From Candidatus Omnitrophota bacterium (GTDB taxonomy: Bacteria > Omnitrophota > Omnitrophia > Omnitrophales > Aquincolibacteriaceae): a DNA stretch of 64,000 nucleotides. Location: positions 7,515 through 71,514 of the forward strand of contig JAHFHG010000005.1 of assembly GCA_023247035.1 (NCBI GenBank), given 5' to 3'. Shown here one piece after another: positions 4,964 to 60,498 of the stretch. A program made the translations under genes and the position numbers. Under the pieces are notes generated by a model that was not told the origin of the DNA, ran no database searches, and saw only the letters and a list, made by a program, of their open reading frames with translations. Positions within the stretch are counted from its first letter, which is position 1; each line of letters begins with the position of its first letter.

Positions 4964-5521
4964 TCACCTCTTCGAAAGACGTCCCGGGTCCGAGTGTTTT
5001 AAAATCCAGACCCCAAGCCATCCTCCCAATATTCCGATAAAAGCTCCCGCGGCCACATCCGAAGGGTAATGGACTCCTATAAAAATCCTGGAAATTGCGA
5101 CGATGAAAGCCGCCGGATAAACAAACCGGGCCGCCCGGCCATAAAAGAAATGCAGCAGTACGGCTGCGGCAAAGGCTGCGGCCGAATGCCCGGAGGGGAA
5201 GGAGTAGGTATCCGGACGGGCAAAGAGTGTCCGGATCACGATTTCAGGCGGAAAAAAATCATAAGGCCTGGGCCGCATAAAGGCAAGTTTGAGCCCGCCG
5301 GCGAATAAATAGACTATCGTCACGACAAGGGCGAAAGCAAGATAGTCCTTCATCCATCCCTTTTGCCTGGAAATCCACATCACGCAAAATACGACGCCCA
5401 GCAAAACTTCAAGCCGCCCCAATACCGTAGGCCAGCCCAATAAATAATTGAGCCACTCTCGATCGTTGAATCTGTTCATCCACAGGAATAATCGATGATC
5501 CAGGTCAAAAATCCAGTTCAT
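4964..5521 (-). CDS. PAP2-family membrane phosphatase (undecaprenyl-/lipid-phosphate phosphatase-like)
   Basis: PSGHS...GVHYPSDV PAP2 motifs; ORF in track extends to 5599 but the start is probably the internal Met at 5521. Confidence 0.65.
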   Translation of the reverse strand: MNWIFDLDHRLFLWMNRFNDREWLNYLLGWPTVLGRLEVLLGVVFCVMWISRQKGWMKDYLAFALVVTIVYLFAGGLKLAFMRPRPYDFFPPEIVIRTLFARPDTYSFPSGHSAAAFAAAVLLHFFYGRAARFVYPAAFIVAISRIFIGVHYPSDVAAGAFIGILGGWLGVWILKHSDPGRLSKR

Positions 5522-5544
5522 GCGCCTCGCAAAGGAAATCGAAT

Positions 5545-6585
5545 TTACTTGGTGGCAATAAGCATCCAGGCCTTTGGACGAATGAGAATGCGCGGCCAAA
5601 AAGTGATTTTTTGGATGAACTGATAAAGAAATTTTTGAGCCCGCGCCCAGCGGGCGAAGCTTAATTTAGAGGAGGAATGGATCCCCCTTTTTTCTTTGCG
5701 GTCGATATAGTCATCGATAAAAGAAAACAAATGAATCTTCACTTTCCGGAATCCGCCCTGCCGCGCTCTCTTTTCCCACTGCGGAATCGTATAGGCGTTC
5801 TCATTGAATCCCTCGTGAATCGCTTCCTGCAGGGCCTTGCCGGATTTATCTTCAAAAACTCCGAAGGCGCATTCGTGGAGCGCGACCACCCTCCCGTTCG
5901 GACGGAGGACGCGGCGGAATTCATGAAAGAGTTTGGACAAATCTTTGCAGTGATGAATGACGGAGTGGGAAAAAATAATGTCGAAGCTTTCGTCCTTAAA
6001 AGGAAGCGCGCTCATGTCCGCGCTGAGCCGATCGAAATAGCTTCCGTCTTGCTCAAAATAAAGGTCGGCCGTGATCAAATAATCCGTCACATCTAGGGCC
6101 ACGACCTCGCAGCCGCGCTGGGCCATACGCCAGGAAGCCCAGCCGAAACTTGCGCCGACCTCCAGGACTTTCTCCCGGCCCGTCAATCGGAGGAGTTCCA
6201 AGGTTTCAAAAAACCGCCGGGCATTGCCTGCTTGATTTTCAAAGCTCCCGCCGGGCTGGAAGTAACGGCTCCCGTCGCCCGTGGGCAATTGAAGGAAAAG
6301 ATCTTTAAATTGCGTGATGGTCTGGCGGTTGATCGAATATTTTTCCCCGCTTTCTGTGGTAAGGTAGCCGAAAGATTCGGCGTGGTCCTTTTCGTGGGCC
6401 ACTTCCTCGGGCAATATGCCGAGCGCGTTCAATATTCCGTTCTCAATCTTGTAAATTCTCCGGCAAAAGCTGCACTCCAGAATGCCTTCCCGGATTTCGC
6501 GCTCATCTTCAAGCGTCACGGTAAGATTCCACTCGGACTGCCGGCAATCCAAACAGCGGAGAAATGCCAAAAGGTCTCTTCTCAT
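5545..6585 (-). CDS. class I SAM-dependent methyltransferase with N-terminal Trm112-like zinc ribbon
   Basis: N-terminal C-x2-C ... C-x2-C ribbon (CLDC...CSFC, ...ENGILNAL) fused to a Methyltransf_11-like domain (VLEVGASFGW...ALD); overlaps the upstream JAMM gene by 4 nt. Confidence 0.65.
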   Translation of the reverse strand: MRRDLLAFLRCLDCRQSEWNLTVTLEDEREIREGILECSFCRRIYKIENGILNALGILPEEVAHEKDHAESFGYLTTESGEKYSINRQTITQFKDLFLQLPTGDGSRYFQPGGSFENQAGNARRFFETLELLRLTGREKVLEVGASFGWASWRMAQRGCEVVALDVTDYLITADLYFEQDGSYFDRLSADMSALPFKDESFDIIFSHSVIHHCKDLSKLFHEFRRVLRPNGRVVALHECAFGVFEDKSGKALQEAIHEGFNENAYTIPQWEKRARQGGFRKVKIHLFSFIDDYIDRKEKRGIHSSSKLSFARWARAQKFLYQFIQKITFWPRILIRPKAWMLIATK

Positions 6586-7040
6586 AAGACAAAATCCTTT
6601 TTACCCGGCTCCCAGTAAAAAAGATTAGACCCGTGCGCTTTTCCCTGGATCACGGAGACAACCAAATAATCGACGCCCGGGTAAGCGGGCTCTCCTTCAC
6701 AAAGGGCAATGCGCCGGTCTTCCTCTGAAAAATAAGCGCCGGCGTCGATGTGCGAATGATAAATCACGCGGATCCTTTCCTTTTTTCCGCGCATCTCCTT
6801 CTGGATCGCCAATAATTCCTTGGGCTCCATGAAATAAGCGGAGGCGGCCGTCCTCGGAAAATTCACGGGATCTTTTTGATGATATTCATTTTGGACGTTT
6901 CTGCAAGGCCGGAGGCGCGAAAATTTTTCCGGATTCCCTGCCGCGGTTAAGATCAAGCCGCAGCATTCGTTGGGGTATTCGCGTTCGGCCTGCTGAAAAA
7001 TCGGCGTTAAGAATTTTTGAGGAATCGCTAAACGCTTCAT
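6582..7040 (-). CDS. JAMM/MPN metalloprotease, Mec+ (CysO-cysteine peptidase)-like
   Basis: Perfect JAMM motif E...HSH-x7-S-x2-D (HSHIDAGAYFSEED). Track ORF extends to 7205, but its 5' part overlaps the cysM remnant; the likely start is Met56 (MKRLAIPQ). Confidence 0.7.
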   Translation of the reverse strand: MKRLAIPQKFLTPIFQQAEREYPNECCGLILTAAGNPEKFSRLRPCRNVQNEYHQKDPVNFPRTAASAYFMEPKELLAIQKEMRGKKERIRVIYHSHIDAGAYFSEEDRRIALCEGEPAYPGVDYLVVSVIQGKAHGSNLFYWEPGKKDFVL

Positions 7041-7780
7041 TTCATCCACAACTGCGCGCTCAGATACTTGTCTCCGCCGTCCGGGAAAACAATCACGGCA
7101 ACTCCCTCGTCTAAGTTTTTCAGGGCCTGGAAAACCCCGTGGAGCGCTGCCCCCGAGGACGGGCCGACAAGCCATCCTTCTTTGGCCGCGAGTTCGCGCG
7201 TCCATTCGTAGGCCGGCTCGGTCGGAACGGTGACTTTCTCGTCATGAACCGCAGGGTCATAAATCCGCACCGGAACCGAGGAATCCATATTCTTCAGGCC
7301 TTCGATGCCGTGGAATGATTCCGGCTGGACCGCGATGATTTTTATATTTTTGTTTTTTTCTTTCAAAAAACGGCCGGCCCCCATCAGCGCGCCCAGTCAG
7401 AGCCTTTCAAGGGATCGGTATAAATGATCCTTGCCCCGTAAGCCTCAAGGATCATTTTGCGCTCGTAGCTTACATTTTTGGGCGCGACCAATTCAACAGG
7501 AAAAACCATGGCCGCTCCGATCATCGCGTAAGCAGTGCCGGTATTGCCCGAGGTGGAATCCATTAAGGTCTGCCTTTTCCGAAAGACTCCGGAACTCAAT
7601 CCCTCGCGGATCATCCGGTAAGCAGGCCGGGATTGAACCGCTCGGCTTTCGCGTAGATCTCAAGCCTTGGCGAGATTTCCTTCAGAATCCGGCTCAAGCG
7701 CAAAAGCGGCGTGCCGCCGATATGATCCAGCACGGAAAATTTCTTTTCAGCCGTAATCGAAGCGCGCATACCGCATTTTA
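7037..7780 (-). pseudogene. cysM: cysteine synthase (CysM/CysK family) pseudogene: two internal deletions and frame changes
   Basis: Three consecutive ORF pieces in different frames (7617-7780 N-term ...AKAERFNPG; 7384-7614 PAYRMIREGL...TSGNTG...; 7037-7384 GAGRFLK...C-term). The PLP-lysine segment (G-S-[IV]-K-D-R) between NPG and PAYRMI is missing and the reading frame shifts there. About 55 aa is missing between GSDWAR and GAGRF. Confidence 0.7.
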
Positions 7781-8178
7781 CCTAAATGAAGGCTGATTGT
7801 TAATGCCTATCTGACGGAAAGCCCGGGCCATTTTTCCCGGCGGCGGGAGAACCTTTTAGACGAATTAAGACGAACGGCGCCTTATTTGAGCATCATCCGC
7901 TTGAGCGTTTTCATTTTGAGGCGTTTTTGCGGCGGGAAAGCCGAAAAAATTTATTAAACGATTCGGCAGATTTCGTTCTATTAAAGAGTTCGAAACAATA
8001 TCCTTTTCAAGCTACGACGCGAATGAAAGACAACCGGTATATTGAAAAAAGAACATAAAGATCGCGAAAAAATCCATATTTGCCGGCTCCATATCGACCG
8101 GGAGAAGGCAGCATCAAAGGGTTTGTTTCAAAAATTAGTAATGCGGCTTCCGAATGAGTAAGATTATTTCGAAGCGGA

Positions 8179-9825
8179 TCAATCTTCGTGAAGAACGCCG
8201 GCAAGGCCTTTGCCGGCTTTGAGTTCCACAAGCACATAGGGGCCCGGCTTCGAAGAGCGGGGGCGGCGGGTGCGTATTAAAAGGTTGATTCCCTCTCCTT
8301 GGGCAAACCATGCTTCTTCAAGAGGGATCGAAGGATTTTGAGCCGTAAAAGTTTTGATCTTCCGGCCTCGTTTTCCTGTTTTTCGAATGACATCCACCTC
8401 GTAAACGGAACCGTCTTGAGGCTCAAAACCATATTGGACGGCAAGGTCTTTAAAGTTCAGATGATTCCCCTGCAGCTCAAACTGATCCAGAGGATTGGAC
8501 TCCCGGAACCAGTGCTTCGCGATCAGATCGCGCCTTTCGGTTAAGACTTTTGCCAAATATTCGGCGTCTCCGGCCCGGCTCAGCTCGCCGGCTTGAACGA
8601 TCATTTTAATATCTTCATCGGTGAAGGCCGTCATGATTTTTGCAGCCCAAAAGCCGTCTGCCCGCGAAAGGTCTTTAAACGGAAAATACGGAAGCTGGGT
8701 CTTATATTGGGAAGGATCAAAATAGCGGTTATCAAAATAGCCCACGGCCGGGGAGTCGTGAACTTTCTCGCCGGCCTCGCGCCACCTTCTCTGCCAGGGT
8801 TTTTCCCATAACCCCAAACTGAGAAAGGCCTTTGCGGCCGCCCCGTAATCCAAGAAATATTCATGCCCCATGGGCGGAATCTTCGGGCCCTCCGTGGCCG
8901 AACCTAAGGTCATATTAAAATCAATGAGGTAATGCTTCAAAAATGATTTTCCATTTTCCGTGACCAGCATATCCAGCGTATTGCTCTCCCGGACATCGCA
9001 ATTATTCAGCCAGGAGGAAAAAACCTGCAGGGCCCGTATCGAGCGCCTGTCTTTATGATCCACAGGATCTTCAGGATCGTTTTTACGCCTTTTTTGAAAA
9101 CTGAAACTCCCCTTCTTTTCGCCTTTTAAAATTTTACTCGCCGACGCCCTTAACCGCCCCTCGGAATCCAAAGGCAAAAAGAGGATAAACTCTTCCAATT
9201 TATCTGGGGTCAACTTTTTCTTAAAACCCGTGGAGTCGATCACCTTCGCGTTCGGGCCCGGCACGAGTTTCTCCGGCGGGAAAACGACGTTGGTGTATTG
9301 GGGGACATGATAACCCAGGGCGTGATAAAAACGGCTGGCAATGACTTCCGCGCCCGTGGTCAGTTCAAAATAATCCTGCGGATCAAATTTTAGTAAATAC
9401 TCATCGCCCCGGCTGTCCTGAATAAAAAATCCAGGGTGCAGCCCTTCAAATTTGCCGCGGACAATCGTCAAATCGCCGCTTAAATCCGGGCCGTCCGTTT
9501 CGCGCGGACCGTCCTTGAGCTCCTGCGCTGAAAGGCGCTCGCGCCCGTGCCGGTTGACAAAAAACGCGGAATCCGGGACCTCGTCGTAAACATTGACATC
9601 CTTGGCGCGGAGACGTTTGCCGAATAAGGCCCGGTAAAGCCGCTCGAGGTGAAGAAACTGGGTGCCTTCGTAATATAAGTTCTGGTCAAAAACATCGCGG
9701 TAAAGACCTGTTTGATTTTTTTTGAATTCCACGGTCTCCGAGGCATAAACCCCGCGGCAGAGGGCGAAAGAAAAAATCGCGGCAATCAACAAGATGGGCT
9801 TAAAAAGGCGCTCGCGTCTCAACAT
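8179..9825 (-). CDS. secreted atypical kinase-like protein (PI3K/PI4K/HipA-CtkA superfamily catalytic motifs) with Sec signal peptide
   Basis: Signal peptide MLRRERLFKPILLIAAIFSFALCRGVYASE. Gly-rich loop and YLLKF segment; catalytic-loop-like NNCDVRESN (D-x-R-x-x-N) and LIDFNMTLG (IDF[GN]). Aligns with PI3/4K GDRHxDN...HIDFG and HipA GNtDDHlKN. Track ORF begins at 9876; start reassigned to the Met preceding the signal peptide. Confidence 0.45.
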   Translation of the reverse strand: MLRRERLFKPILLIAAIFSFALCRGVYASETVEFKKNQTGLYRDVFDQNLYYEGTQFLHLERLYRALFGKRLRAKDVNVYDEVPDSAFFVNRHGRERLSAQELKDGPRETDGPDLSGDLTIVRGKFEGLHPGFFIQDSRGDEYLLKFDPQDYFELTTGAEVIASRFYHALGYHVPQYTNVVFPPEKLVPGPNAKVIDSTGFKKKLTPDKLEEFILFLPLDSEGRLRASASKILKGEKKGSFSFQKRRKNDPEDPVDHKDRRSIRALQVFSSWLNNCDVRESNTLDMLVTENGKSFLKHYLIDFNMTLGSATEGPKIPPMGHEYFLDYGAAAKAFLSLGLWEKPWQRRWREAGEKVHDSPAVGYFDNRYFDPSQYKTQLPYFPFKDLSRADGFWAAKIMTAFTDEDIKMIVQAGELSRAGDAEYLAKVLTERRDLIAKHWFRESNPLDQFELQGNHLNFKDLAVQYGFEPQDGSVYEVDVIRKTGKRGRKIKTFTAQNPSIPLEEAWFAQGEGINLLIRTRRPRSSKPGPYVLVELKAGKGLAGVLHED

Positions 9826-11158
9826 AGAAATTTGTCCCTTCGTCGCCGTGGGCCCACTCCAATCCCAAGACGGCATGATTTAGAATGCTGATGCGGAATC
9901 CCAAGCCGTAGGACTCCTTGAAATCTTTGAACTGAAAATCCGAAAAGTCCCGAAACACCTGGCCCTCGTCCCAAAAAAGAACCGTATCGAGCTTCCAGTC
10001 TTTGTACTCCCAAATCGTATAACGGTATTCGAGGTTCAACAGCGCGTCGCTCTCGGCAAAAAATCTATTTTGAGCAAAGCCGCGCAGAGTCTGGCTTACG
10101 GAAGGATAAGCGCCGTAACCGCCCAGCTTAGCCATTTGATGAAAAGGGACGTCGCGGCCGGACAGTTCATTATTGTGCTCCCCGTGAAACCGAAGGGCAA
10201 GGACTCGGCGCGCGGAGCCTAAAGTGAAATAACGGCTTGCATCGGCTTCGTATTTGAAATAGCGCGCGGTCGAATTCCCAAGGCCTTCATTAAAATTGAA
10301 TCCCAGGCGCAGGCGCCCTCCCGCGGTCGAATTCTCCCGCTGGTTTCTCGTATCCCAGACAAACTCCGGCCCGATTGAAAGGAGTTCATCGCCGCTTAAA
10401 CCCGGAATAGACCCTGAAGAAAAGATGCGGTCGATAATCCCTCTGCCGCCGTCTTCGCCGTTTGTAATGTTAATGTTCCGGTAGGAAAATTTTAAGTCTC
10501 CGGAAAGCAAAGGATGCGGGGCATAGCCTACGTTTGCGCTGAGCGTTGTCGCCTCTAATTTATAGGATGTCCCGTCGCCCCGGCTTGTGTTTGGCCCGAT
10601 CCCGTGAAAATACTCCTCCGGACGGGATTCGTAGTTAAAAATCCCAAACGCGCGGAAGCCCGTGCCCCCGATACGCTCCAGCCCCGCTTTGGAACCCACC
10701 TCGAAAATCGACCGGTGCGCGTAAGAGGTCCAGCCCTGAACGATCAGGTCCGGGAAATGTGTTTTTTGCTGCGCCATACGGACAAAATCAAATTTTGTCC
10801 CGTTGTTGTTGAGGCCTATTTTGGGCGTAATTCCAAAATCCTGAATTTTCTCGTAGAGGTAGATGGTCTTTTCATACAAGTGTTCTTTCTCAACAAAAAC
10901 AAGGCCCTGGTCGACGGGCCATTTGATGAGTTCAAAAGGATAGACGAGAAAATGAGTAAGGGCATTTTGAGTCGAAGATTCCGGAGCCGGCTCCTTTTTG
11001 AAAATGGCGCCGTAGCGGTCGTAGCTTGCTTGCTCAGCCCAAGCTTGCAAGGAAATCCCCGCCAAGAAAAATCCCAGAAATCCGGCCGCAATTCGAGTGA
11101 AAACTGGGGTAGGTTTCAAAAGACGTGGCATAAGTGTTTCTTTATTACGGCTAGTCAT
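9800..11158 (-). CDS. Omp85-family (bacterial surface antigen D15-type) outer-membrane beta-barrel without recognisable POTRA domains
   Basis: C-terminal Omp85 barrel signature (NLEYRY...VLFWDEGQVF...YGLGFRI...LEWAHGDEGTNFYVETRAPF, terminal Phe); N-terminal signal-like hydrophobic segment; about 150 aa N-terminal region with no POTRA-like pattern. Confidence 0.55.
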   Translation of the reverse strand: MTSRNKETLMPRLLKPTPVFTRIAAGFLGFFLAGISLQAWAEQASYDRYGAIFKKEPAPESSTQNALTHFLVYPFELIKWPVDQGLVFVEKEHLYEKTIYLYEKIQDFGITPKIGLNNNGTKFDFVRMAQQKTHFPDLIVQGWTSYAHRSIFEVGSKAGLERIGGTGFRAFGIFNYESRPEEYFHGIGPNTSRGDGTSYKLEATTLSANVGYAPHPLLSGDLKFSYRNINITNGEDGGRGIIDRIFSSGSIPGLSGDELLSIGPEFVWDTRNQRENSTAGGRLRLGFNFNEGLGNSTARYFKYEADASRYFTLGSARRVLALRFHGEHNNELSGRDVPFHQMAKLGGYGAYPSVSQTLRGFAQNRFFAESDALLNLEYRYTIWEYKDWKLDTVLFWDEGQVFRDFSDFQFKDFKESYGLGFRISILNHAVLGLEWAHGDEGTNFYVETRAPF

Positions 11159-11167
11159 TCTTTTTTC

Positions 11168-13597
11168 TTAACTTCCAAGAATTTCGTGGAAACGCGGCTC
11201 ACGTTTGATCTTTTCAAGCTGCGGCCAGTTGCGGTTCCATTGGAGTTCGGAAACCACAAAAATTCCGATCAGGGAAAACCAGCGGTCTTCAAAACCGGCC
11301 AGCCCTTCGAGAATCCCCACAGCCTCCTCTTCTTCCGTAGACGAACTGTTGGGCTCCAAAACGCTCCCTAAAATGAGAAGGACGTCCGGCTCCACGGTGT
11401 TGGACAAAAGCTCGACGGCCTGCTGGCGGACAGGGTCGGATTCCGGGTGCTCCACAATCCAGGCGTGGATGTTGTGCATCATTTCGAGAGGGTACAAGAG
11501 ATCCAGGTAATGAAAAAGGCGTTCCAGGCTTTCGTCTAAAACGGTTTTGAGCGCCACCCTTAAGTACTTCGGATTCCCGCTCTTGGTTTGACGGTCATAA
11601 AAAAAAATCAATTTTTGAAAATTCTTATAAATTTTCACTTCGCGCGCGATCTCTGTTTTGATGGAAGCCGGGTTGATGGCCAGTTTCGGATCTTTTTCGT
11701 GCATCTGATCCAGCGCTTTTGCGATCACAAACCGGAATGCGTGATCCTGGGTTTCGCTGGAAAGCTTCAGAAGCAGGTCGAGAGCCTCCTGCTTGACGAT
11801 AAATCCCAGCAGCCGCACGGCTCTGCGTTTGGCATCCAGCCCTTCTTGCCGGTTTTCCAGGATTTTTTCCAATTGGTTTAAAATTTCCTGCGGGCCGCTT
11901 TGAAGATAATCCTTCCAGGCCGCCCGATTCAAAGCCTCCGGCCGTCCGTTTAAGAAAACGCGGTGGATGAAAAACCAATAATCATCGTGCGTCAGTTCAT
12001 CCTCAAGGCTGTTTAGGCTCTGATGAACCTGGAAGGCCTCTTCGCGGATCATCCGCTCCACCAGCCGCCTGGCCGAAGCCAGGTTCTGCGATCTCGTGTA
12101 AGCGAGGCAGGCCGTGGCCGCAATTTTTCGGGTATAAGAAGAAGGGTGGTTGATCAGAAATTGTATTTGATGCCAATTTTTTTCATCGTAAAGAAAACTC
12201 AGGACGTCGGTGGCCCGCTGGGCCTTGACGACTTCGGTGTGCGGCCAGCGGTGAAGCAGATGATGGCGCAAGAGATCGGAATAATTTTTACGCATTTGCC
12301 AGGCTAGGAAAAACCAAAGCGGCATCAACGTCAAAACCAGGATGCCGAGCCGTTCATCGCTAAGGCCCAAAAACGGCGCGGCAACGGCAATGTAAAGGCC
12401 GCCCAAGGTTTTTGCGCCTCGGAAACCCAGCATATCGATAATCGGTTTAACCCGGCGCCTGAGCGAACTTGAAAGAGGAAGAAACAGGACTTCCTTACTG
12501 GCCTGCTGAATGGAATAGTTAACGCTTCCGTCGAACGTTTTAAGAAGCAGGCTCGGAATCAGGAGCGCGGGAGAAAGAAAACTGAAAATAGAAAACGCGG
12601 CCAGCCCCAGCGGGAGCAGTTGAAGGGAAAATCCTATTCCAAGATACCGCAGACAAAGGCTGGTCAAAAAAAGCTGGATCAATAAAGAAACGCCGTTCAA
12701 AGAGGCCATAAATCCGCCCAGAAAAGCGGTCCGGTCGTCTTTGCCTAGAATCGCCAGCTCGACGCTGCGGCTGAATTGATTGTCAATAATCGTCGAGGCA
12801 ATCTTGGCGATTATGACGATCAAAGCAAGCATGATCAGGTAAGACGAACGGCGGACAATTTGAGGCCGCGCAGGATTCATCAAGGTAACCGTGAAGTCCG
12901 ACGAGTTCGCAGCTTGGCGCCTCTTCTCCCGGGGGTCGGGTGACTTGCCTGGGGAAGGATCGGAAGGCGCGGCGTCCATCCAATCCCGCGCCGGGACTTT
13001 TTTCCAGATCAAAAAGTTCAGGATCCCGCACAAGAAAAGAAGGCCGGCGACTCCTAAAAGCAAATCCTCCGTCTTCAGCCAGCGCACGGCGGCCTGCGTA
13101 AAAAAACCGCCCATCACTCCTCCGAGGGAGCCGCCGCTGATGATCAATCCAAAAAGACGTTTGGCCTCCGCCGGATTGAAAATATCATTGGCGAGGATCC
13201 AGAACTGCGTGGTCATCGTAATCGAAAAAGAAGCGACCCAGACATAAAAGAATGCGGAAAGATACGGCGTGTTCCGCCGGAACAAAAACCAGAAAATAAG
13301 AAGATTCGAGATAAAAAATGCGGGCACCAAAACGGAAAAGATATTTTTAGGAATGCGTTTGGATAAATAAACGTAAACCGCCACAACAAGAATAAGAAAA
13401 AATCCTTCGCCCATATACATAAACCGCAAATTCTGGGCGCCCAGCTCGGTCAAAAAAAGCGAGCTTCGCACAGGTTTGAGGATATAGATCAGGGCAATGA
13501 TCAGAAAAAAGCTGCAGAACATAAGGAACGTTTTTTTGCGTTCCCCGGGATGGATGTCGACAAACGCGCCCAGCAGCCGGCGCAGGAGTTGGGGCAT
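11168..13597 (-). CDS. TLC/AAA-family nucleotide (ATP/ADP) transporter-like permease fused to C-terminal HEAT-repeat domain
   Basis: N-terminal ~450 aa with 12 predicted TM helices and the TLC signature FW.LAN.I....EAKR.FG (FWILANDIFNPAEAKRLFGLI) matching Rickettsia/Chlamydia Tlc; C-terminal ~350 aa of alpha-helical HEAT/ARM-like repeats. Confidence 0.65.
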   Translation of the reverse strand: MPQLLRRLLGAFVDIHPGERKKTFLMFCSFFLIIALIYILKPVRSSLFLTELGAQNLRFMYMGEGFFLILVVAVYVYLSKRIPKNIFSVLVPAFFISNLLIFWFLFRRNTPYLSAFFYVWVASFSITMTTQFWILANDIFNPAEAKRLFGLIISGGSLGGVMGGFFTQAAVRWLKTEDLLLGVAGLLFLCGILNFLIWKKVPARDWMDAAPSDPSPGKSPDPREKRRQAANSSDFTVTLMNPARPQIVRRSSYLIMLALIVIIAKIASTIIDNQFSRSVELAILGKDDRTAFLGGFMASLNGVSLLIQLFLTSLCLRYLGIGFSLQLLPLGLAAFSIFSFLSPALLIPSLLLKTFDGSVNYSIQQASKEVLFLPLSSSLRRRVKPIIDMLGFRGAKTLGGLYIAVAAPFLGLSDERLGILVLTLMPLWFFLAWQMRKNYSDLLRHHLLHRWPHTEVVKAQRATDVLSFLYDEKNWHQIQFLINHPSSYTRKIAATACLAYTRSQNLASARRLVERMIREEAFQVHQSLNSLEDELTHDDYWFFIHRVFLNGRPEALNRAAWKDYLQSGPQEILNQLEKILENRQEGLDAKRRAVRLLGFIVKQEALDLLLKLSSETQDHAFRFVIAKALDQMHEKDPKLAINPASIKTEIAREVKIYKNFQKLIFFYDRQTKSGNPKYLRVALKTVLDESLERLFHYLDLLYPLEMMHNIHAWIVEHPESDPVRQQAVELLSNTVEPDVLLILGSVLEPNSSSTEEEEAVGILEGLAGFEDRWFSLIGIFVVSELQWNRNWPQLEKIKREPRFHEILGS

Positions 13598-14002
13598 CTA
13601 AAAAAGCCCGCCGCTTTCATCGCTCACCCCAAAGGCATTATCGATGAAACGCACTTGCGGTTCTCCCTGATTCCAAAGGATCGCTAAAACGGCAAATGAG
13701 ACGGGCATTTTTTCCAATTTTTTCTCTTTCCTAAACCATTCGGCAAGATGGATCAATTTCTTTTGTTTGACAAGGCCCACGGCCTCCTCCGGCCTCCCGC
13801 GCTCCGGGGAGTTTCGCGTCTTCACTTCAATGAAGAAAAGCCGTCTGTTTTTTTGGGCGACGGCGTCGATCTCTCCGATCTTGCACCGGTAATTTTTTTC
13901 CAAAATTTTAAAGCCCGCGCGCACCAGATAACCCCAGGCAATCATTTCCCCGCGCCTGCCCAAAGAAAGCTGAAAAGGCTCTTCCCGAGGCTGGAGCTTC
14001 AT
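13598..14002 (-). CDS. yraN: YraN-family (UPF0102) endonuclease
   Basis: GE.IA..YL...G..IL.KN.R...GEIDAVA......F.EVKTR pattern; canonical position downstream of rnhB. Confidence 0.75.
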   Translation of the reverse strand: MKLQPREEPFQLSLGRRGEMIAWGYLVRAGFKILEKNYRCKIGEIDAVAQKNRRLFFIEVKTRNSPERGRPEEAVGLVKQKKLIHLAEWFRKEKKLEKMPVSFAVLAILWNQGEPQVRFIDNAFGVSDESGGLF

Positions 14003-14790
14003 CGAGACTCTTTCTCAACAAAAAAACTGCGGACGGGTGAAAAGCTTTTCCGGTGGACCGGCGAAGGGCCGATTTTTTGAATCATTCGTAAATGCCTCGG
14101 CGTCGGGTAGCCTTTGTGATTTTTAAAATCATAGGCGGGATACAGTTCATCGAGGTGGCGCATCCAGGCGTCCCTATAGACCTTTGCAACAACGGAGGCA
14201 GCGGCAATGACTGCGGATTTTCCGTCTCCTCCGACAAGGGTCTGTTGAGTTAACGGGAGATCGATTCTGGCATTCCCGTCGATCAGCAATACGTCCGGAG
14301 TTCGAGATAGAGAAAGCACCGCCCGCTTCATGGCAAGGCGGCTTGCTTGGAAAATATTCAGGCGGTCAATCTGCTCTTCATCCACGACCCCGACACCGAT
14401 CAGCGCGATTTTCAAAATGGCTTGAAAAAGGATCTCGCGCCGCCGGGCCGGCAATTGTTTGGAATCATTGAGCCCTTGCAAGGCCCCAAGAAGGCTGTTC
14501 GTTCGGATGAAAATAACCGCGGCGGCCACCACCGGGCCGGCTAGAGGGCCTCGGCCGGCCTCATCGACGCCTGCGAACCGGCCGGTCGATTTCGCGGCGA
14601 GGAGAGAATCAAAGCGAAGAAGACGCGCAGTCGTCGACGTGTCCAAAAAATCGGGGCCTTTTAATTTTGAAAGAGAGATTCGTTCACTGAGACTTGTTGT
14701 TCTACGTATTGCTGATGCGGAAAACCGCTGCCCCAGGCTAAAGCCGGCGGCGCGCTTTGGGCCGTTGCGGCGTATTGCAATACGCCGCAA
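13999..14790 (-). CDS. rnhB: ribonuclease HII
   Basis: AGVDEAGRGPLAGPVV catalytic motif; the N-terminal ~45 aa of the track ORF are atypical, so the true start is probably a downstream non-ATG codon. Confidence 0.85.
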   Translation of the reverse strand: MRRIAIRRNGPKRAAGFSLGQRFSASAIRRTTSLSERISLSKLKGPDFLDTSTTARLLRFDSLLAAKSTGRFAGVDEAGRGPLAGPVVAAAVIFIRTNSLLGALQGLNDSKQLPARRREILFQAILKIALIGVGVVDEEQIDRLNIFQASRLAMKRAVLSLSRTPDVLLIDGNARIDLPLTQQTLVGGDGKSAVIAAASVVAKVYRDAWMRHLDELYPAYDFKNHKGYPTPRHLRMIQKIGPSPVHRKSFSPVRSFFVEKESR

Positions 14791-14813
14791 GCAAACCCTT
14801 GGTTTATAGAAAA

Positions 14814-15131
14814 CTATTTCGCTTTCAAATAATAAAGTTTGGCACGCCGCGCCTTCCCTTTGCGGCTGACGGCGATTTTTTCAACGCTGGGCGAATACAA
14901 GGGGAAATGTTTCTCCACAATATCCCCGTGCGTTTCCTTAAGAACCGTAAAGCTGGCTCCGGCTCCGGTCCCCCGGCGGCGGATGCAGATACCCTCGAAG
15001 ATCTGGGTGCGGGTCTTGTCCCCTTCCTTGACGCGGATATGAACCTTGAGCGTGTCCCCTACTTTAAACGCGGGGATCTCTTTTGTGCAGAATTCTTTCT
15101 CAACAAATTGAATGGCTTCCCTTGCTTTCAC
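14814..15131 (-). CDS. rplS: 50S ribosomal protein L19
   Basis: 105 aa, conserved L19 sequence. Confidence 0.9.
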   Translation of the reverse strand: MKAREAIQFVEKEFCTKEIPAFKVGDTLKVHIRVKEGDKTRTQIFEGICIRRRGTGAGASFTVLKETHGDIVEKHFPLYSPSVEKIAVSRKGKARRAKLYYLKAK

Positions 15132-15868
15132 AGATTAGTCTCCTTCTTGATTAAAGTAATTTTTTCCATCAGATCCGGCCGCTTTTTCCGGGTGATCTGC
15201 CGGGAAACCGTTTGACGCCACTTTTCCACTTCCCGGTGATTTCCAGAAGCGAGAATTTCCGGCACTTCCCACCCCCTGAATTTGCGCGGCCGTGTGTATT
15301 GCGGGTACTCCAGATATCCGTGCTGAAAACTTTCCTCTTTAAGAGAGTCTCGATTTCCTAAAACGCCGGGGACAAACCGGATCACGGCTTCCATAAGACA
15401 AAGGGCCGGCGCCTCCCCTCCCATCGTTACAAAATCGCCGACGGATACAACCTGGTCCGCAAGGCGTTCCTGGACGCGGTAATCCACGCCTTCATAATGC
15501 CCGCAAATCAGGATCAAACGCTTCCGCCGCGAGAGCTCTTTGGCCAGTTTCGGGGTTAAGGACTCTCCGCCGGCATCCAGGAGCACGACCCATCCGAGGC
15601 CGCCCGCGCTTTTTAATCCCGGTTTCTTCTCTTTAGCCTGAAGGGCCTCGACACACTCAAAAATGGGCTCAGGTTTCATCACCATTCCGGGACCTCCGCC
15701 GAACGGTTTGTCGTCCACGGTTTTGTGTCTGTCCCGGGTGTGATCCCGCAGATTATGGATCCGGATTTCGACGCGGCCGTTTTGCCGCGCGCGTTTGACG
15801 AGAGACTCCTCAAGCGGCCCCTCAAAAAAATCCGGAAATATCGTCAGCACATCAATCTGAAAGGCCAT
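15128..15868 (-). CDS. trmD: tRNA (guanine37-N1)-methyltransferase
   Basis: 246 aa, SPOUT TrmD core; overlaps rplS start by 4 nt. Confidence 0.9.
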   Translation of the reverse strand: MAFQIDVLTIFPDFFEGPLEESLVKRARQNGRVEIRIHNLRDHTRDRHKTVDDKPFGGGPGMVMKPEPIFECVEALQAKEKKPGLKSAGGLGWVVLLDAGGESLTPKLAKELSRRKRLILICGHYEGVDYRVQERLADQVVSVGDFVTMGGEAPALCLMEAVIRFVPGVLGNRDSLKEESFQHGYLEYPQYTRPRKFRGWEVPEILASGNHREVEKWRQTVSRQITRKKRPDLMEKITLIKKETNL

Positions 15869-15880
15869 TTCAATGACCCT

Positions 15881-16132
15881 TCAAACTTTTTTCAGCCTCT
15901 TGGCGCGCTTCAAAAGACTCCGAAGAGCACTGCTCAACTGAGCCCCTTGCTTGAGCCAATAGTCCAGCCGCTCTTTATTGACCTCGAACTTTTCATCGGC
16001 GGGAAGCGGATCGTAAGACCCGATCTCTTCGATAAACCGGCCGTCGCGCGGCATCTTTGCGTCGCTGACCACAATGCGCCACTGCTGGCGGTTTTTGGTC
16101 CCAAAACGTTTTAATCGAATATGGACAGCCAA
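15881..16132 (-). CDS. rpsP: 30S ribosomal protein S16
   Basis: 83 aa, S16 N-terminal consensus; TTG start with GGAGG RBS 5 nt upstream. Confidence 0.85.
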   Translation of the reverse strand: MAVHIRLKRFGTKNRQQWRIVVSDAKMPRDGRFIEEIGSYDPLPADEKFEVNKERLDYWLKQGAQLSSALRSLLKRAKRLKKV

Positions 16133-16291
16133 GTCAAACCTCCTTCATTAAGGTTAAGCACGAAATTTGAATCTCGAAATTCGAGTTTTCAAAATTTGGT
16201 TTATTAGAACTCAAGCTAGAATTTATTTCGTATTTCGCCTGCCTGCCGCCCGGAAGGGCCGGGATTTCGTGTTTCGTATTTTGCATTTCCA

Positions 16292-17557
16292 TCATTCTCT
16301 TTCCCGGTGGATCGACGCCCCTAAGAAAGAAAATTTTGTTTCCAGCTTTTCATATCCCCTGTCCAGGTGATAAACGCGGTGGACTTCCGTCGTCCCCTCC
16401 GCGACAAGCGCTGCAAGAACAAGGGCCGCGCTCGCCCTGAGATCCGAGGCCATCACGGGCGCGCCGCTCAAGCGCTTCACCCCGTGGACAATGGCGCTGT
16501 TGCCCTCCAGAAAAATTTTAGAGCCCATCCGGTTCAATTCGCTGACGTGCATAAAACGGTCGGGATAAATTTTTTCCGTAATCACGCTGATCCCGGGCGT
16601 GATTGACATTAAGGCCATCATCTGCGCCTGAAGGTCGGTAGGGAAACCCGGATAAGGCAACGTCGTCACATCGACCGGTTTCAGGCGGCCGTTGCGCCTG
16701 ACCCGCAGCGTCATTTTCCCTTTATCGATACGCACGCCCGATTGTCTCAATTTATCGGCCACCGCATGAGTATGAGCCGGTTCTGTTTTCTTGATCAGAA
16801 CATCCCCGCCGGTCATGGCAGCCGCAAAAAGATACGTCCCGGCTTCGATCCGGTCCGGGATCACCGCAAACCGTATCCCCCGCAATTTTTTAACCCCTTC
16901 AATTTCGAGGATCGGCGATCCTTCCCCGATAATTTTTGCGCCCATCTTTTTTAAAAACCGCGCCAGATCCACCACCTCAGGCTCGCAGGCCGCGTTTTCA
17001 ATCGTGGTCTTGCCTTGCGCCAGCACCGCCGCCATCATGACGTTGCCGGTCGCAAGCACGGAAGATCCGAAGGAACCTCCGAGAAAAATATCCGCGCCCC
17101 TTAACTTCTTGGGCGCCCTGGCATTGACATAACCGTGCTGGATTTCGACCTGCGCGCCCAGGGCCTCCAGTCCTTTAATATGCAAATCGATCGGGCGAGG
17201 GCCGATAATGCACCCGCCGGGGATCGAAACTTCCGCCTGTCCCATTCTCGCAAGGAGCGGCCCCATCACGCAAACCGAGGCGCGCATCGTGCTTACCAGC
17301 TTGTACGGCGCCACGGGATTGAGATTTTTTCCGGGCTTGACGGTCACCGTTCCGTTTTCATACTGGGCCTTTGCGCCAAGCGCCCTCAAAAGCCGCAGCA
17401 TGGTTTGGATGTCCCTTAAATCCGGAACATTTTCAATGACCGACTCTTCTTCGCTCAGAAGGCTGGCCGCAATGATCGGAAGGGCTGAATTTTTAGCGCC
17501 GGAAATTGCAACCTCGCCCTTGAGTTTCCGCCCGCCGGTAATGACAATTTTATCCAT
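16292..17557 (-). CDS. murA: UDP-N-acetylglucosamine 1-carboxyvinyltransferase
   Basis: 421 aa, full-length MurA. Confidence 0.9.
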   Translation of the reverse strand: MDKIVITGGRKLKGEVAISGAKNSALPIIAASLLSEEESVIENVPDLRDIQTMLRLLRALGAKAQYENGTVTVKPGKNLNPVAPYKLVSTMRASVCVMGPLLARMGQAEVSIPGGCIIGPRPIDLHIKGLEALGAQVEIQHGYVNARAPKKLRGADIFLGGSFGSSVLATGNVMMAAVLAQGKTTIENAACEPEVVDLARFLKKMGAKIIGEGSPILEIEGVKKLRGIRFAVIPDRIEAGTYLFAAAMTGGDVLIKKTEPAHTHAVADKLRQSGVRIDKGKMTLRVRRNGRLKPVDVTTLPYPGFPTDLQAQMMALMSITPGISVITEKIYPDRFMHVSELNRMGSKIFLEGNSAIVHGVKRLSGAPVMASDLRASAALVLAALVAEGTTEVHRVYHLDRGYEKLETKFSFLGASIHRERE

Positions 17558-17566
17558 GAATCATTT

Positions 17567-18499
17567 TCAACAATTGGCCTGCCCCATTAAAACCCGCTCG
17601 ATCTTGCTGTAATCTTGAAAGATCCGTATTTCCTTAAAGGAGTTCCTTTGCATTCTTTCGGCCACGCTTGCCGCCTGCCCTTGGCCGACCTCCACCGCAA
17701 GCCATCCTCCGGGATTTAAAAATTCCGCCGCCTCGCGAAGGATGCGGTCGTAAAAGACCAGTCCGTCTTCACCGCCATCCAAGGCCTGCCGGGGCTCAAA
17801 AAAAATTTCAGGTTCTACGCTTTCCCAGTCCCGTCTTGAAAGATACGGAGGATTGGAAACAATGGCATCCCACTTTTTCGGATTTACCTTAGAAACGTTT
17901 CGCGCGGCTTCGAACAAATCCGAACGCAGAATTTCCGAACGGGCTAAAAGACCGTAACGGGCTAAATTTTTGCCCGTAATCTGAAGCGCGGCTTCGGAAA
18001 TATCCAAGAAAGTCGCGCGGGCATTCTGAAAATAGCGCAAAAGCGCAATCCCAATCGCGCCGGAGCCGCACCCCAAGTCCAAAAACCGAAAACTTTTTTC
18101 TTTAGAAAATCCGGCGACGTCGATAAAACGCTCGACCAAAACTTCGGTTTCAGGACGCGGGATTAAGCACCCTTCGCGGACTTCAAGATATTCATTCCAA
18201 AAATACGCCCCGCCCGAAATATAAGCGGAAGGGATCCTCTTTTTCCGGAGCCGGATCCACTGCCGGTATTGCTTCAGATGTTTCGCCTCAACCGGCTGTT
18301 TGGCTTTAAGATAAAGGGCCGGCCTGGAGCAGCCCGATACTTCCCGAAGCAGCTTCTCAGCTTCCGCGGCCGCTTCTTGAATTCCAAGAAATTCCAGTTC
18401 TTTTTTTCCCCACTCGAGAATTTCTTCGATACTAAAGGATTGAAAGGGCGCGGGCTTGGAGAAAACCTTGGAAAGAGTTGCCTGAAAGAGAGGATTCAT
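17567..18499 (-). CDS. prmC: release factor glutamine N5-methyltransferase
   Basis: NPPY motif (IVSNPPY); immediately downstream of prfA with a 4-nt overlap. Confidence 0.85.
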
Positions 18500-42420: not shown

Positions 42421-42751
42421 CTTCTCCCTCAGAAAAGGCCGTATTATAACATAATTCCGCTTGAGATCTCGCGCAGGGATAGAAGGCTATTAGCATAAGG
42501 AAGTTTTTTTCAGCGTCATTCTTATTCGAAAGGCGAGAAAGCGGAAAAAATAACACGGCTGGGGGGAAAAATGCAAACCACGAAAAACTGCCGGAACCCT
42601 GAACCAAGTCCTGGTTTATCGCGTGGAGTCGAAAGGGCTCATTCGTTAAGAACCTAAGACTCGCTGCGCCTGCTGGCAGGCAGATTCGCTCAGGATAAGG
42701 CCCCGTTTGTAGAGATCAAGAATTTCCGAGGACTCAAATCATATAAGATCG

Positions 42752-42842
42752 GCGGAGAGTGAGCGATTCGAACGCTCGAGGGCGGCTTTCACCACCCCAG
42801 CGGTTTAGCAAACCGCCGCCTTAGACCACTCGGCCAACTCTC
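42752..42842 (-). tRNA. tRNA-Ser (anticodon GCT)
   Basis: Cloverleaf folded by hand: acceptor GGAGAGT/ACTCTCC, anticodon stem GCGGT/ACCGC, loop TTGCTAA, T-loop TTCGAAT, long variable arm. Confidence 0.8.
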
Positions 42843-42907
42843 CGCGATAAGAGGAATGGGAAACAAAAAATAAATCAGAGGGCAAGTCCCTCCAGATCGA
42901 ATAATAT

Positions 42908-42990
42908 CGGAGGGCGAGGGACTCGAACCCCCAAGTCCTCGCGGACGGCGGTTTTCAAGACCGCTGCCATACCAGTTAGGCGAGCCCTCC
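42908..42990 (-). tRNA. tRNA-Ser (anticodon TGA)
   Basis: Acceptor GGAGGGC/GCCCTCC, anticodon loop CTTGAAA, T-loop TTCGAGT, long variable arm (GTCC-GCGA-GGAC). Confidence 0.75.
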
Positions 42991-44424: not shown

Positions 44425-46938
44425 TTATTTTTCCTCTTGCTCGTCTTCTTCCTGGAGTTCAAGCTGATCGGACCCCTCTGCGGATTCCGCTCCTTCTTTT
44501 TCGACGACGCGGATCGCGGCGGCGACGCGCTGCTTGTCTTTTAATCGAATGACGTGCACGCCCTGCGCGTTTCTTCCGGAAGTCCGAATCTGGCTCACGG
44601 GGCAGCGGACGACCATTCCGCCGGTGGTGACAATAACCAGTTCGTCTTCCTCGTGAACGGTCAGGACATTAACCACGGGACCGTTTTTCGACGTGACTTT
44701 GACATTAATAATTCCCTTCCCGCCGCGCGACTGGACGCGGTATTCTTTGAATTTCGTCTTCTTGCCAAAACCGAGCTCGGTCACGCTTAAGCACACCGCT
44801 TCAGAATCCGCAATCTCCATTGCGATCACTTCGTTTTTTTTCTCGAGCCGGATGCCGCGGACGCCCGAGGCGGTGCGGCCCATATCCCTGACTTGTTTTT
44901 CTGAAAAACGAATCGCCTTCCCGGTGCGTGTCGCAAGAAAGATTTCGTCTTTTCCGGACGTCAATTTACAGGATACAAGCTCATCTTTGTCGCGCAAAGT
45001 GATCGCGTTAATTCCCGTAGTGCGCGGATGGGAATAGTGAACAAGGTTCGTCTTTTTGATGATCCCGTTTTTGGTGGCCATCAGGACGTATTGTTTGTCA
45101 TTGAATTTTTTGACCTGAAGGAAACTTGAAATCTTCTCGTCCTGGCCCAGCGAAAGAAGATTCACAATAGCCTTGCCTCGCGCCTGTCGCGACGCCTGGG
45201 GAATTTCATAAGCCTTCCGCCAATAGACGCGGCCCTTATTCGTAAAAAAAAGGATCGAGTCGTGCGTAGAAGACAAAAACATGTGCTCGATAAAATCTTC
45301 CTCGTCCCGCATTCCGGCCCCCGTAACGCCCGTGCCGCCGCGGCGCTGCTTGCGGTACATCGAAACCGGAATCCGCTTGATATATCCGGCGTGCGAGATC
45401 GAGATCAAAACGTCCTCTTCGGCGATCAAATCCTCGATTTCAATTTCTTCTTCCGCGGCCACAATCTGGGTCCGCCTTTCATCGCCGTATTTTTTAGCCA
45501 ATTCTTCGCATTCGGCCCTTACGATTTCCAGCACCCTTTTGCGGCTTTTGAGCACCGCGCGGTAATCTTCGATTTTTTTGATCAGCCCCAAGTATTCCTC
45601 GTCGATCTTCTCCCGCTCAAGGGCCGTCAGCCGCTGGAGCTGCATTTCCAAAATCGCCTGCGCCTGGACTTCCGTAAGTTTAAAATTCTCCAGTAAGCCT
45701 TGTTTCGCGGCCTCCGGGCTTTTTGAAGCGCGGATCACCTTGATGACTTTATCCAGATTCGCAATCGCGATCTTGAGGCCTTCTAAAATGTGCGCGCGCT
45801 TTTCGGCCTTTTCCAGCTCGAAGCGGGTACGCCGGATCACCACCTCCACGCGGAATTCTATAAAATGCTCAATCGCCTGTTTGATCGTCAGCACGCGCGG
45901 CTGGCCGTCGACCAAGGCCAGCATAATCACGCCGAAGGTTTCCTGCATCTGAGTGTGTTTGTAGAGCTGGTTCAGAACAATCTGAGGCACGGCGTCGCGC
46001 TTGATTTCGATCACCGCCCTCATTCCGTCGCGGTCCGATTCGTCGCGGATATCGTGGATGCCTTCTATTTTTTTGGCCTCCACTAAATGCGCTATCGACT
46101 GAATCAAATTGGCCTTGTTGACCTGGTAAGGGATTTCCGTAATGACAATCGCGTCTTTTTTCGTTTTCGAAGTTTCGATCACGGCCTTCGCGCGCACCAC
46201 GATCCGGCCGCGCCCCGTCTCTTGAGCGCTCCTGATCCCGTCTCTTCCCAAAATCAATCCGCCCGTCGGAAAGTCAGGGCCTTTGATAATCTTGGAAAGT
46301 TCCTTGATCGTGACTGCGGGATTTTCAATCGTGGCGATAATTCCCGACACGATTTCTCTAAGGTTGTGCGGCGGCACATTCGTCGCCATTCCCACCGCGA
46401 TTCCGCTCGATCCGTTGACTAAAAGACTGGGCAGGCGCGCGGGCAGAAGCGTCGGCTCTTCCAAGGACTCGTCGAAATTCGGCGTGAAACTCACCGTCTC
46501 CTTGTCGATGTCCGTCAGAAGCTCGTTGCTGATCGCTGAAAGCCGTGCCTCGGTATACCGCATCGCCGCGGGATTGTCGCCGTCGATCGATCCGAAATTC
46601 CCCTGGCCTTCGACGAGCGGGTAGCGCAGGGAAAAATCCTGGACCATCCTCACCAGCGCGTCATAAACCGCCATATCGCCGTGCGGGTGATATTTCCCGA
46701 GCACTTCTCCGACGATACGCGCCGCTTTTTTATAAGGCCTATTGTGCGCCAGCCCCAATTCATTCATCGCATAAAGAATGCGGCGGTGAACGGGCTTGAG
46801 CCCGTCGCGGACATCCGGCAAAGCCCGGCCGACAATGACGGACATTGCGTAGTCAATGTATGAATGCCGCATTTCGTCTTCGATTGGGGTCGGGACTATT
46901 TTTTCATTCATTGCGTAAAGATTCATATCGTCGGGCAT
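44425..46938 (-). CDS. gyrA: DNA gyrase subunit A
   Basis: 837 aa; active-site Tyr region AARYTE-like plus C-terminal beta-pinwheel repeats. Confidence 0.92.
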
Positions 46939-47055
46939 ATATAATTCCTATTTTATTCTCTCGTTTAAAGGATTCTCAAAATTGTCGTGGGGCTTCGCCG
47001 CTGGGTTCTCGCGATGACGCAAGATAAGGTTTTTATTCGCAGGCCCTGCAGCGCA

Positions 47056-49560
<2,505 letters not shown>

Positions 49561-49585
49561 TTAACCTTTTTGGTAAATTCATGTT

Positions 49586-50976: not shown

Positions 50977-51114
50977 AAATATTCTCCTTTGTTTCTAATA
51001 AGACTTTATATTTTAACAAAATAGTCGTCATAATAATAGGCTTTGTTTGTATGTGGATAAATATTTTAACTTGTTTTAAACATTAAAGTTATAAAAATTA
51101 AAAGTTGTGGATAA
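50977..51114. promoter_or_regulatory. dnaA-dnaN intergenic oriC-like segment: AT-rich with two DnaA boxes (TGTGGATAA at 51052-51060 and 51106-51114)
   Basis: Two perfect 9-mers complementary to TTATCCACA in a >75% AT spacer. Confidence 0.6.
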
Positions 51115-52509: not shown

Positions 52510-52510
52510 A
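52502..52510. promoter_or_regulatory. DnaA box TTATCCACA overlapping the dnaA start codon
   Basis: Perfect consensus 9-mer read directly. Confidence 0.55.
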
Positions 52511-52949: not shown

Positions 52950-52953
52950 GGTC

Positions 52954-60426: not shown

Positions 60427-60498
60427 AAGTTGCCTTTTCGGCGCCCGCTTTTTGGAGGGATACGCCGCGAAATTATTTCTACATTGAAAGGATTAAAA

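Follow-up and report, generated by a model that had tools for sequence, protein, structure and literature searches.

A TLC–HEAT fusion protein of an Omnitrophota bacterium shares a conserved gene module with an Omp85-family barrel and a putative exported kinase

The 64,000-nucleotide stretch of Candidatus Omnitrophota bacterium DNA studied here (contig JAHFHG010000005.1 of assembly GCA_023247035.1; hereafter the window) encodes on its minus strand, at 11168..13597, an 809-amino acid protein in which a membrane domain of the TLC/NTT family of nucleotide transporters is followed by a HEAT-like domain. This TLC-HEAT architecture, and its presence in Omnitrophota, were already known. What is new is a conserved, asymmetric association of the transporter with an Omp85-family outer-membrane barrel and an exported kinase-like enzyme, of which no description was found in the searchable literature. 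Also new are an apparent secondary loss of the HEAT domain in some relatives and a residue-by-residue comparison with the canonical NTTs. Our preferred reading, to which we give a probability of roughly 40%, is that the protein is a regulated nucleotide exchanger, accessory to the Omp85-kinase envelope pair and probably working in the direction of import.

The transporter gene is the sixth of a tightly packed string on the minus strand (rpsP, trmD, rplS, RNase HII, UPF0102, TLC-HEAT, Omp85 and the gene for a 548-amino acid protein), in which neighbours are separated by gaps of 0-9 nt or overlap slightly. Its ATG abuts the TAG stop codon of UPF0102. The Omp85 gene (9800..11158, minus strand, 452 amino acids) begins 9 nt beyond the stop codon of TLC, and the gene for the kinase-fold protein (8179..9825, minus strand, counted from the methionine at 9825 of a reading frame that reaches 9876) shares its first 26 nt with the end of the Omp85 gene. 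The window contains the minimal trio only, and the transporter is the only one of its components with a cytoplasmic part.

We examined this linkage in 42 non-redundant loci encoding relatives of the transporter. Genes for the TLC protein, Omp85 and the 548-amino acid protein lie on one strand in 34 of them; seven others are cut by contig ends or very short, and the last, a Riflebacteria contig with a transporter of 27% identity, is without the partners. The genes stay linked despite rearrangement: their order is TLC-Omp85-548-amino acid protein in the clade of the window protein and Omp85-548-amino acid protein-TLC in two other clades, one of which has a different genomic neighbourhood. The Omp85 and kinase neighbours were absent at the three classical long NTT-HEAT loci that we examined, in some of which a cyclic-nucleotide-binding domain is also present. 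One of the seven, the short contig L042 (1-2588), has the order TLC-DUF5329-kinase and no Omp85 gene, the sole exception seen to the adjacency of Omp85 and kinase.

A reciprocal scan of metagenomes with the kinase-like family yielded 80 loci. In all loci that extend far enough upstream, Omp85 immediately precedes the kinase gene, and a TLC gene was present in 12 of the 26 loci having at least 7 kb on both sides. Even the slot between UPF0102 and Omp85, in the order RNase HII-UPF0102-slot-Omp85-kinase, was found both with and without TLC (and DUF5329). This suggests that the Omp85-kinase pair is the core and the transporter an accessory, a status that matches the patchy distribution of translocases in Omnitrophota (PMC10066038). 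No alternative transporter occupies the slot in the TLC-less loci, where the neighbours that recur, identified by eye in example sequences, comprise an aminotransferase, a GNAT-like protein, a hydrolase, two-component signalling proteins and Fe-S assembly proteins.

A preliminary description, made from the letters of the window alone, had proposed that the protein is an ATP/ADP-translocase (TLC) family permease with 12 transmembrane helices and a C-terminal HEAT/ARM-like solenoid. The open reading frame is real, running from ATG to stop (809 codons plus the stop codon), and its translation matches a public database protein (P0001) at every residue. More than 100 full-length homologues of about 780-820 amino acids share 35-54% identity with it, and almost all those with a source name are labelled Omnitrophota or Omnitrophica. 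An AlphaFold2 (AF2) model with 61 full-length homologues as input gave a mean predicted local distance difference test score (pLDDT) of 86.9 and a predicted TM-score (pTM) of 0.84.

The membrane domain (residues 1-450; 12248..13597, minus strand) matched Pfam TLC (PF03219) over residues 125-439 with 47.1 bits (cutoff 21, E 2e-12). The five best Foldseek matches in the PDB were all NTT structures (9j3n, 9j3o, 9j3j, 9j3l and 9j3m; E 4.6e-9 to 6.5e-7; TM-scores of 0.61-0.74 on the target). An hhalign comparison of the family profile (residues 1-455) with that of canonical NTT1 gave a probability of 99.6% and E 9.3e-24 over 391 columns at 21% identity. The domain is thus a true but distant homologue of nucleotide transporters, and the resemblance, with an hhalign E of 9e-24 and a Foldseek E of 5e-9, is no product of chance. 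TLC proteins have the fold of the major facilitator superfamily (MFS) and a weak match to MFS_1 was seen (18.6 bits), which would be expected if the protein were a generic MFS permease with a superficial likeness to TLC. This is almost inconceivable: MFS_1 stays below its cutoff of 33.4 whereas TLC exceeds its own, the profile alignment to NTT1 is near certain, the TLC signature is invariant, and the best generic MFS structure came at E 1.4e-4, with the NTTs (5e-9 to 7e-7) ahead by about three orders of magnitude or more. The generic MFS assignment was rejected on the Pfam scores, the fold search and the profile-profile alignment, all of which agree with the TLC family named at the outset.

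The TLC signature FWILANDIFNPAEAKRLFG, read directly off the sequence at residues 132-150 (13148..13204, minus strand), is the motif that the preliminary description had quoted. It aligns with the canonical FWGFAN(Q/E)IT..EAK(K/R)FY.LFG of AtNTT1 and CpNTT1, and W133, A136, N137, D138, F140, E144, A145, K146, R147, F149 and G150 are invariant or nearly so in the 61 homologues. The expected 12 transmembrane helices are also found in the model, where two sets of six long helices (6+6) flank a disordered central loop (residues 201-243). Loops on the N-terminal side of the membrane contain 27 Lys and Arg residues, compared to 7 on the opposite side; by the positive-inside rule, both termini and the helical C-terminal domain would therefore be cytoplasmic, as had been supposed for the solenoid.

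The name ATP/ADP translocase fared less well. While membership of the TLC family holds, the protein scored only 31.4 bits against TIGR00769, the model for canonical NTP/NDP exchangers (cutoff 387.2). Four residues of AtNTT1, K155, E245, E385 and K527, are essential for its activity (Trentmann 2000, as cited in PMC4256464 and PMC4776705), and K527 has been tied to transport of triphosphates rather than diphosphates (PMC4256464, PMC4776705). We mapped these four mutagenesis-defined positions with hhalign and MAFFT, which gave the same result: K155 is replaced by Y61 and E245 by A122, E385 is conservatively changed to D272, and K527 is kept as K396. Membership of the canonical ATP/ADP translocases was rejected on the TIGR00769 score and the loss of K155 and E245. 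K396 is retained in all members of the trio clade, as are K41, R44, K146, R147 and K384, and the EAKR motif, the KE..PL motif and K384/D388 are conserved. A further lysine, K265 in the seventh transmembrane helix, is invariant in and specific to the subclade of the window protein; canonical NTTs have a glycine here.

Comparison with the canonical exchangers, namely C. pneumoniae NTT1/Npt1 (9j3n, 9j3o), Arabidopsis AtNTT1 (9j3j, 9j3l, 9j3m) and Rickettsia Tlc1, reveals a mixture of likeness and difference. The Chlamydia pneumoniae and Arabidopsis translocator structures were determined by cryo-electron microscopy in 2025. The 12-helix fold, the TLC signature, the E385 and K527 equivalents, the K384/D388 motif and the cytoplasmic termini are shared; the window protein differs in its low identity (about 20%), in Y61 and A122, and in having an extra cytoplasmic domain of 347 amino acids. 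Nucleotide counter-exchange is the most likely activity, given the fold, the signature, the conserved K527 equivalent and the basic residues that are retained.

Two of the four residues on which ATP/ADP exchange depends are lost and a clade-specific lysine is gained, which would also be consistent with a different substrate, such as another nucleotide, NAD+ or S-adenosylmethionine (SAM), or a phosphorylated metabolite that the exported kinase and phosphatase make or use. Carriers of NAD+ or SAM and transporters with a broad range of NTPs are among the NTTs characterised so far (PMC5381601), and their substrate range is not predictable from sequence (PMC4256464, PMC4776705). In favour of a nucleoside triphosphate or diphosphate all the same, in microsporidian NTTs where three of the four positions are changed, conserved residues of the right identity are still found within 3-4 positions (PMC4256464, PMC4776705). 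We consider a substrate other than ATP/ADP unlikely, given that K396, whose equivalent is tied to triphosphate transport, is retained along with K41, R44, K146, R147 and K384, and that nothing positive points to any particular alternative.

The C-terminal domain (residues 463-809; 11171..12211, minus strand) is all-alpha, with 19 helices covering 257 of its 347 residues according to DSSP analysis of the AF2 model. Its only Pfam match is to HEAT_2 (PF13646; residues 576-636; 11690..11872, minus strand; 31.6 bits, cutoff 27.7). When only the C-terminal 349 residues were used as the query, 264 matches were obtained among 1.84 billion representative proteins. Beyond the close family, window residues ~560-755 align to residues ~650-890 of proteins of 900-1000 amino acids (E 1e-13 to 1e-5), and the sampled matches and related long proteins have a TLC+HEAT_2 composition in Pfam, some with cNMP_binding. 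The all-helical model, the HEAT_2 match and this homology to longer TLC-HEAT proteins bear out the earlier suggestion of a HEAT-like solenoid of about 350 amino acids.

Proteins of this kind were described by Major, Embley & Williams 2017 as NTTs fused at the C-terminus to HEAT repeats, sometimes with an additional cyclic-nucleotide-binding domain (PMC5381601). The fusions are monophyletic, widely distributed, functionally uncharacterised and found in free-living bacteria; they occur in cyanobacteria, many other bacteria and oomycetes (PMC5381601). The window protein fits this clade in both domains: its C-terminal domain is homologous to theirs and follows an N-terminal TLC domain, the TLC domains of its family are 30% identical to those of long NTT-HEAT proteins and 20% identical to canonical NTTs, and K155 and E245 are lost in both. 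In a neighbour-joining tree, calculated without bootstrap and without the dataset of Major et al. 2017, its TLC domain was provisionally placed with the long NTT-HEAT proteins. The preliminary description had stated that the function of such fusions is not established, in agreement with Major et al. 2017 (PMC5381601).

The window protein nevertheless differs from the classical NTT-HEAT proteins in several respects. Their solenoid measures 450-500 amino acids and has several HEAT matches, whereas that of the window protein is shorter, at about 350 amino acids, and more divergent, with a single HEAT_2 match. It has no fused or adjacent cNMP-binding domain (Pfam found no cNMP_binding match in the protein or its neighbours), it retains K368 and K396 and gains K265, and its subclade is linked to the Omp85/exported-kinase pair, which three long members are without. 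The classical long genes often form pairs of neighbouring paralogues (L047, 2460-8767, 846 + 1232 amino acids; L048, 5347-9790, 436 + 929 amino acids; L043, 489-4611, two adjacent in Terriglobia), and these pairs adjoin cNMP-binding and two-component signalling genes, unlike the subclade of the window protein. No further NTT paralogue was found within the window when each half of the protein was compared by phmmer to all six-frame open reading frames, the only match being to itself.

Some Omnitrophota loci (L028, L029, L032-L035, L037 and L046) encode a TLC protein of about 435 amino acids that lacks the HEAT domain and is 46-53% identical to the membrane domain of the window protein. Wherever the contig reaches far enough, these TLC-only genes sit in the same Omp85-kinase module, and in the distance tree they nest inside the fusion clade (clade A). 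This indicates a secondary loss of the solenoid, without which the core function can apparently be carried out. The solenoid would act as a regulatory or docking module on the cytoplasmic face of the membrane. A more prominent role, in which the protein is a sensor (or 'transceptor') whose TLC domain binds a ligand and whose HEAT solenoid relays this event to cytoplasmic partners, would account for the conservation of so large a cytoplasmic domain and for the fact that long NTT-HEAT relatives carry or adjoin cNMP-binding domains and lie near genes for an HD-domain response regulator, a histidine kinase and SpoIIE. It is very unlikely, however, as the HEAT-less sublineage keeps both TLC and the module, indicating that the membrane domain functions on its own, the residues of the transport pathway remain invariant, and no signalling gene lies beside the TLC-HEAT gene in the window.

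The two partners are both predicted to lie outside the cytoplasm. The 452-amino acid protein matched Pfam Omp85 with 71.1 bits (cutoff 24), and no POTRA family was detected in it at E<=0.1. Its match to NCBIfam Omp85_fam was under the cutoff, and that to the BamA equivalog far under. It appears to consist of a barrel only and resembles the noNterm class of Omp85 proteins, for which a role in translocating the product of the next gene downstream has been proposed (Heinz & Lithgow 2014, PMC4104836; Leptospira study, PMC11358297). As in noNterm Omp85 and two-partner secretion systems, the POTRA-less barrel is encoded directly upstream of a signal-peptide-bearing protein. The passenger candidate in the window differs in having a kinase fold and no two-partner secretion (TPS) domain.

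Conservation of this 548-amino acid protein (51-80% identity) exceeds that of the transporter, and 51 of 55 homologues have a signal-peptide-like N-terminus. Its AF2 model (pLDDT 85.6, pTM 0.87) most closely resembled the secreted kinase CtkA of H. pylori in a Foldseek search, with modest scores (E 2.3e-3, TM-score 0.51), followed by the Golgi casein kinase Fam20C, Rio2 and VPS34, all weaker than E 2e-3; the C-terminal part of the protein matched FN3-like sandwiches. The catalytic set K146, E160, D277-x4-N282 and D302 is conserved in 51-55 of the 55 sequences. The window protein itself has no Pfam match, two of its homologues match HipA_2 weakly (26.8 bits, cutoff 27), and a sequence-profile search of the PDB found no kinase, only spurious armadillo-repeat matches. 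We base the kinase assignment on the fold, the motif and the weak HipA_2 match. A second motif, NVNxFDEVPDSxFFxNRH (residues 78-92), lies outside the kinase core, and its N78, D81, E82, D85, F89, N91 and R92 are invariant in all 55 sequences. No description of the pair of Omp85 and exported kinase-like genes (8179-11158) was found in the literature.

Additional components accompany the trio in relatives. A DUF5329 protein of about 200 amino acids, usually with a lipobox (L-x-G-C), is encoded directly 3' of TLC in 26 loci, in both gene orders (e.g. L019, 9448-10038). It is not present in the window and is mostly missing where TLC is missing, which suggests that TLC and DUF5329 form a transporter-lipoprotein sub-unit; none of the papers listed by the literature search mentions DUF5329. 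In the Omp85-kinase-TLC order, an exported protein tyrosine (PTP) or dual-specificity phosphatase is encoded 5' of Omp85 (Y_phosphatase2, 68.9 bits; HCxxGxxR; signal-peptide-like N-terminus; loci L018, L019, L021-L023, L031, L039, L041, L045 and L005, and also L100 and L105). An OmpL-like porin (BBP2, 228 bits) often follows DUF5329 in the same order.

Upstream of the trio, the string from rpsP to UPF0102 spans 13598..16132 on the minus strand and has the same order in relatives. UPF0102/YraN (13598-14002) and RNase HII (13999-14790) were assigned by Pfam, and rplS (14814-15131), trmD (15128-15868) and rpsP (15881-16132) by their size and position relative to annotated syntenic loci. A scan of 7200-17800 for promoters and terminators gave counts no higher than in shuffled sequence, and operon boundaries were inferred from gene spacing.

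We tentatively favour a model in which the 12-helix TLC domain would exchange nucleotides, most likely a nucleoside triphosphate or diphosphate, between periplasm and cytoplasm, taking up outside nucleotides from a host or prey in exchange for ADP, under the control of a solenoid that is not needed for the activity itself. The transporter would be an accessory part of an envelope module whose core is the POTRA-less barrel and the exported kinase-like enzyme, extended in some relatives by the PTP phosphatase, the DUF5329 lipoprotein and the porin. Noting that noNterm barrels are proposed to translocate passengers, the kinase would be at the cell surface and the pair may act there. Flux direction is not decidable from sequence; we favour import because every characterised NTT imports nucleotides, because the pair to which the transporter is optionally added may act at the surface, because relatives encode a porin and a lipoprotein alongside the transporter, and because a host-dependent lifestyle has been proposed for many Omnitrophota. 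Seymour et al. 2023 reported an ATP/ADP translocase (K03301) in 11 of 31 Aquiviventia and 20 of 36 Omnitrophia genomes and proposed that Omnitrophota translocases scavenge ATP during symbiosis (PMC10066038). These translocases come from the same phylum as the window protein and probably represent the same gene family; their report mentions neither a HEAT domain nor the gene neighbourhood.

A number of observations weigh against import-type exchange. The TIGR00769 score is far under its cutoff, the Y61 and A122 substitutions are common to the whole NTT-HEAT fusion clade, and this clade, to which the protein was assigned in part by a distance tree without bootstrap support, is functionally uncharacterised as a whole (PMC5381601). 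Its frequency in free-living bacteria argues against a role in parasitism only (PMC5381601), as does the presence of the full trio on a Terriglobia contig, a metagenome-assembled genome, against a role limited to parasitism. The preliminary description had linked the family to obligate intracellular or epibiotic lifestyles; this link stands for canonical NTTs but not for the NTT-HEAT clade and, since the latter is widespread among free-living bacteria, lifestyle is unreadable from the TLC-HEAT gene of the window alone. Omnitrophota are moreover reported to have relatively complete metabolisms, the fairly complete metabolism of the window protein's organism being a further difference from the canonical exchangers (PMC10066038), and the location of the gene in a ribosomal-protein and tRNA-modification string suggests constitutive rather than host-induced expression. 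Lastly, import alone leaves the tight linkage to the kinase unexplained.

The linkage would be accounted for if flux ran the other way, with the exchanger exporting ATP and taking in periplasmic ADP (and Pi), thereby fuelling the exported kinase-like enzyme of the same operon. An exported PTP phosphatase, where present, would free the Pi that completes a cycle of ATP versus ADP+Pi, and the cytoplasmic HEAT domain would gate this costly export according to the state of the cell. The only part of the module with a cytoplasmic face belongs to a nucleotide-transporter family, the enzyme encoded with it in the operon has a signal peptide and a complete kinase catalytic set, and the periplasmic loops of the transporter are short, so that the two would be coupled most simply by a small molecule. 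The exchange catalysed by NTTs is an electroneutral counter-exchange documented as reversible, loss of ATP for external ADP is a documented risk in Rickettsia, and an ADP/Pi-bound structure of AtNTT1 exists. The phosphatase gene lies directly upstream of Omp85 in the Omp85-kinase-TLC loci, and NTT-HEAT proteins occur in free-living bacteria (PMC5381601), for which uptake of ATP from outside is implausible.

We regard export of ATP as possible, though we lean against it. Only 12 of the 26 full-flank Omp85-kinase loci have TLC, even where synteny is otherwise identical, so the kinase needs no linked transporter. ATP would leak through outer-membrane porins, one of which belongs to the extended module, and no NTT is known as a physiological ATP exporter. 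The kinase fold scores are modest (Foldseek E 2e-3, TM-score 0.5; HipA_2 just under cutoff; no kinase among PDB profiles), and no literature was found on periplasmic ATP supply or on periplasmic kinases coupled to NTTs. The complete scheme, a trans-envelope phosphorylation system with HEAT-gated ATP export, retrieval of ADP+Pi, an exported kinase working with Omp85 and, in some cases, an opposing PTP phosphatase, is doubtful. In eukaryotes, an ATP/ADP exchanger of the endoplasmic reticulum and Golgi feeds secretory-pathway kinases of the Fam20C type. This lumenal ATP supply may offer a parallel in that an extracytoplasmic kinase requires a membrane exchanger, and Fam20C is among the best folds of the partner, but the transporter families are unrelated and the analogy would apply only if ATP were exported.

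Other features of the window are recorded here for completeness. The region downstream of the module (4964-7205, minus strand) has genes for a Prok-JAB protein, a PAP2-family phosphatase and a methyltransferase whose N-terminal part is a Trm112-like zinc ribbon. Relatives, too, have the JAB and methyltransferase genes downstream of the module. The chromosomal replication-origin region lies at 44425-59017, with gyrA, gyrB, dnaN and dnaA on the minus strand, a gap of ~1 kb (about 52.5-53.5 kb), and yidC, mnmG, parA and parB on the plus strand. Cumulative GC skew is lowest near 50 kb, and the GC content drops to 0.42-0.43 at 50-52 and 56-58 kb. A solute-binding protein gene followed by a GH94 glycan phosphorylase of the cellobiose/chitobiose phosphorylase type (59140-62970, plus strand) suggests that beta-linked disaccharides are taken up and cleaved by phosphorolysis. 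At 42751-42990 (minus strand), two tRNA-Ser genes lie side by side, one with the anticodon GCT and one with TGA.

The existence of defined partners makes the function of this NTT-HEAT subclade testable. Whichever flux direction holds, 'ATP/ADP translocase' matches should be used with caution as markers of energy parasitism in genome surveys, since the window protein passes Pfam TLC, fails TIGR00769 and lacks two of the four essential residues. ATP export, if true, would overturn the general premise of a periplasm without a supply of ATP. As the first line dedicated to bringing ATP into the periplasm of bacteria, it would also hint at what NTT-HEAT proteins do in free-living species. The import that we favour, if true, would support the host-dependent lifestyle proposed for many Omnitrophota and would tie nucleotide uptake to a surface kinase system.

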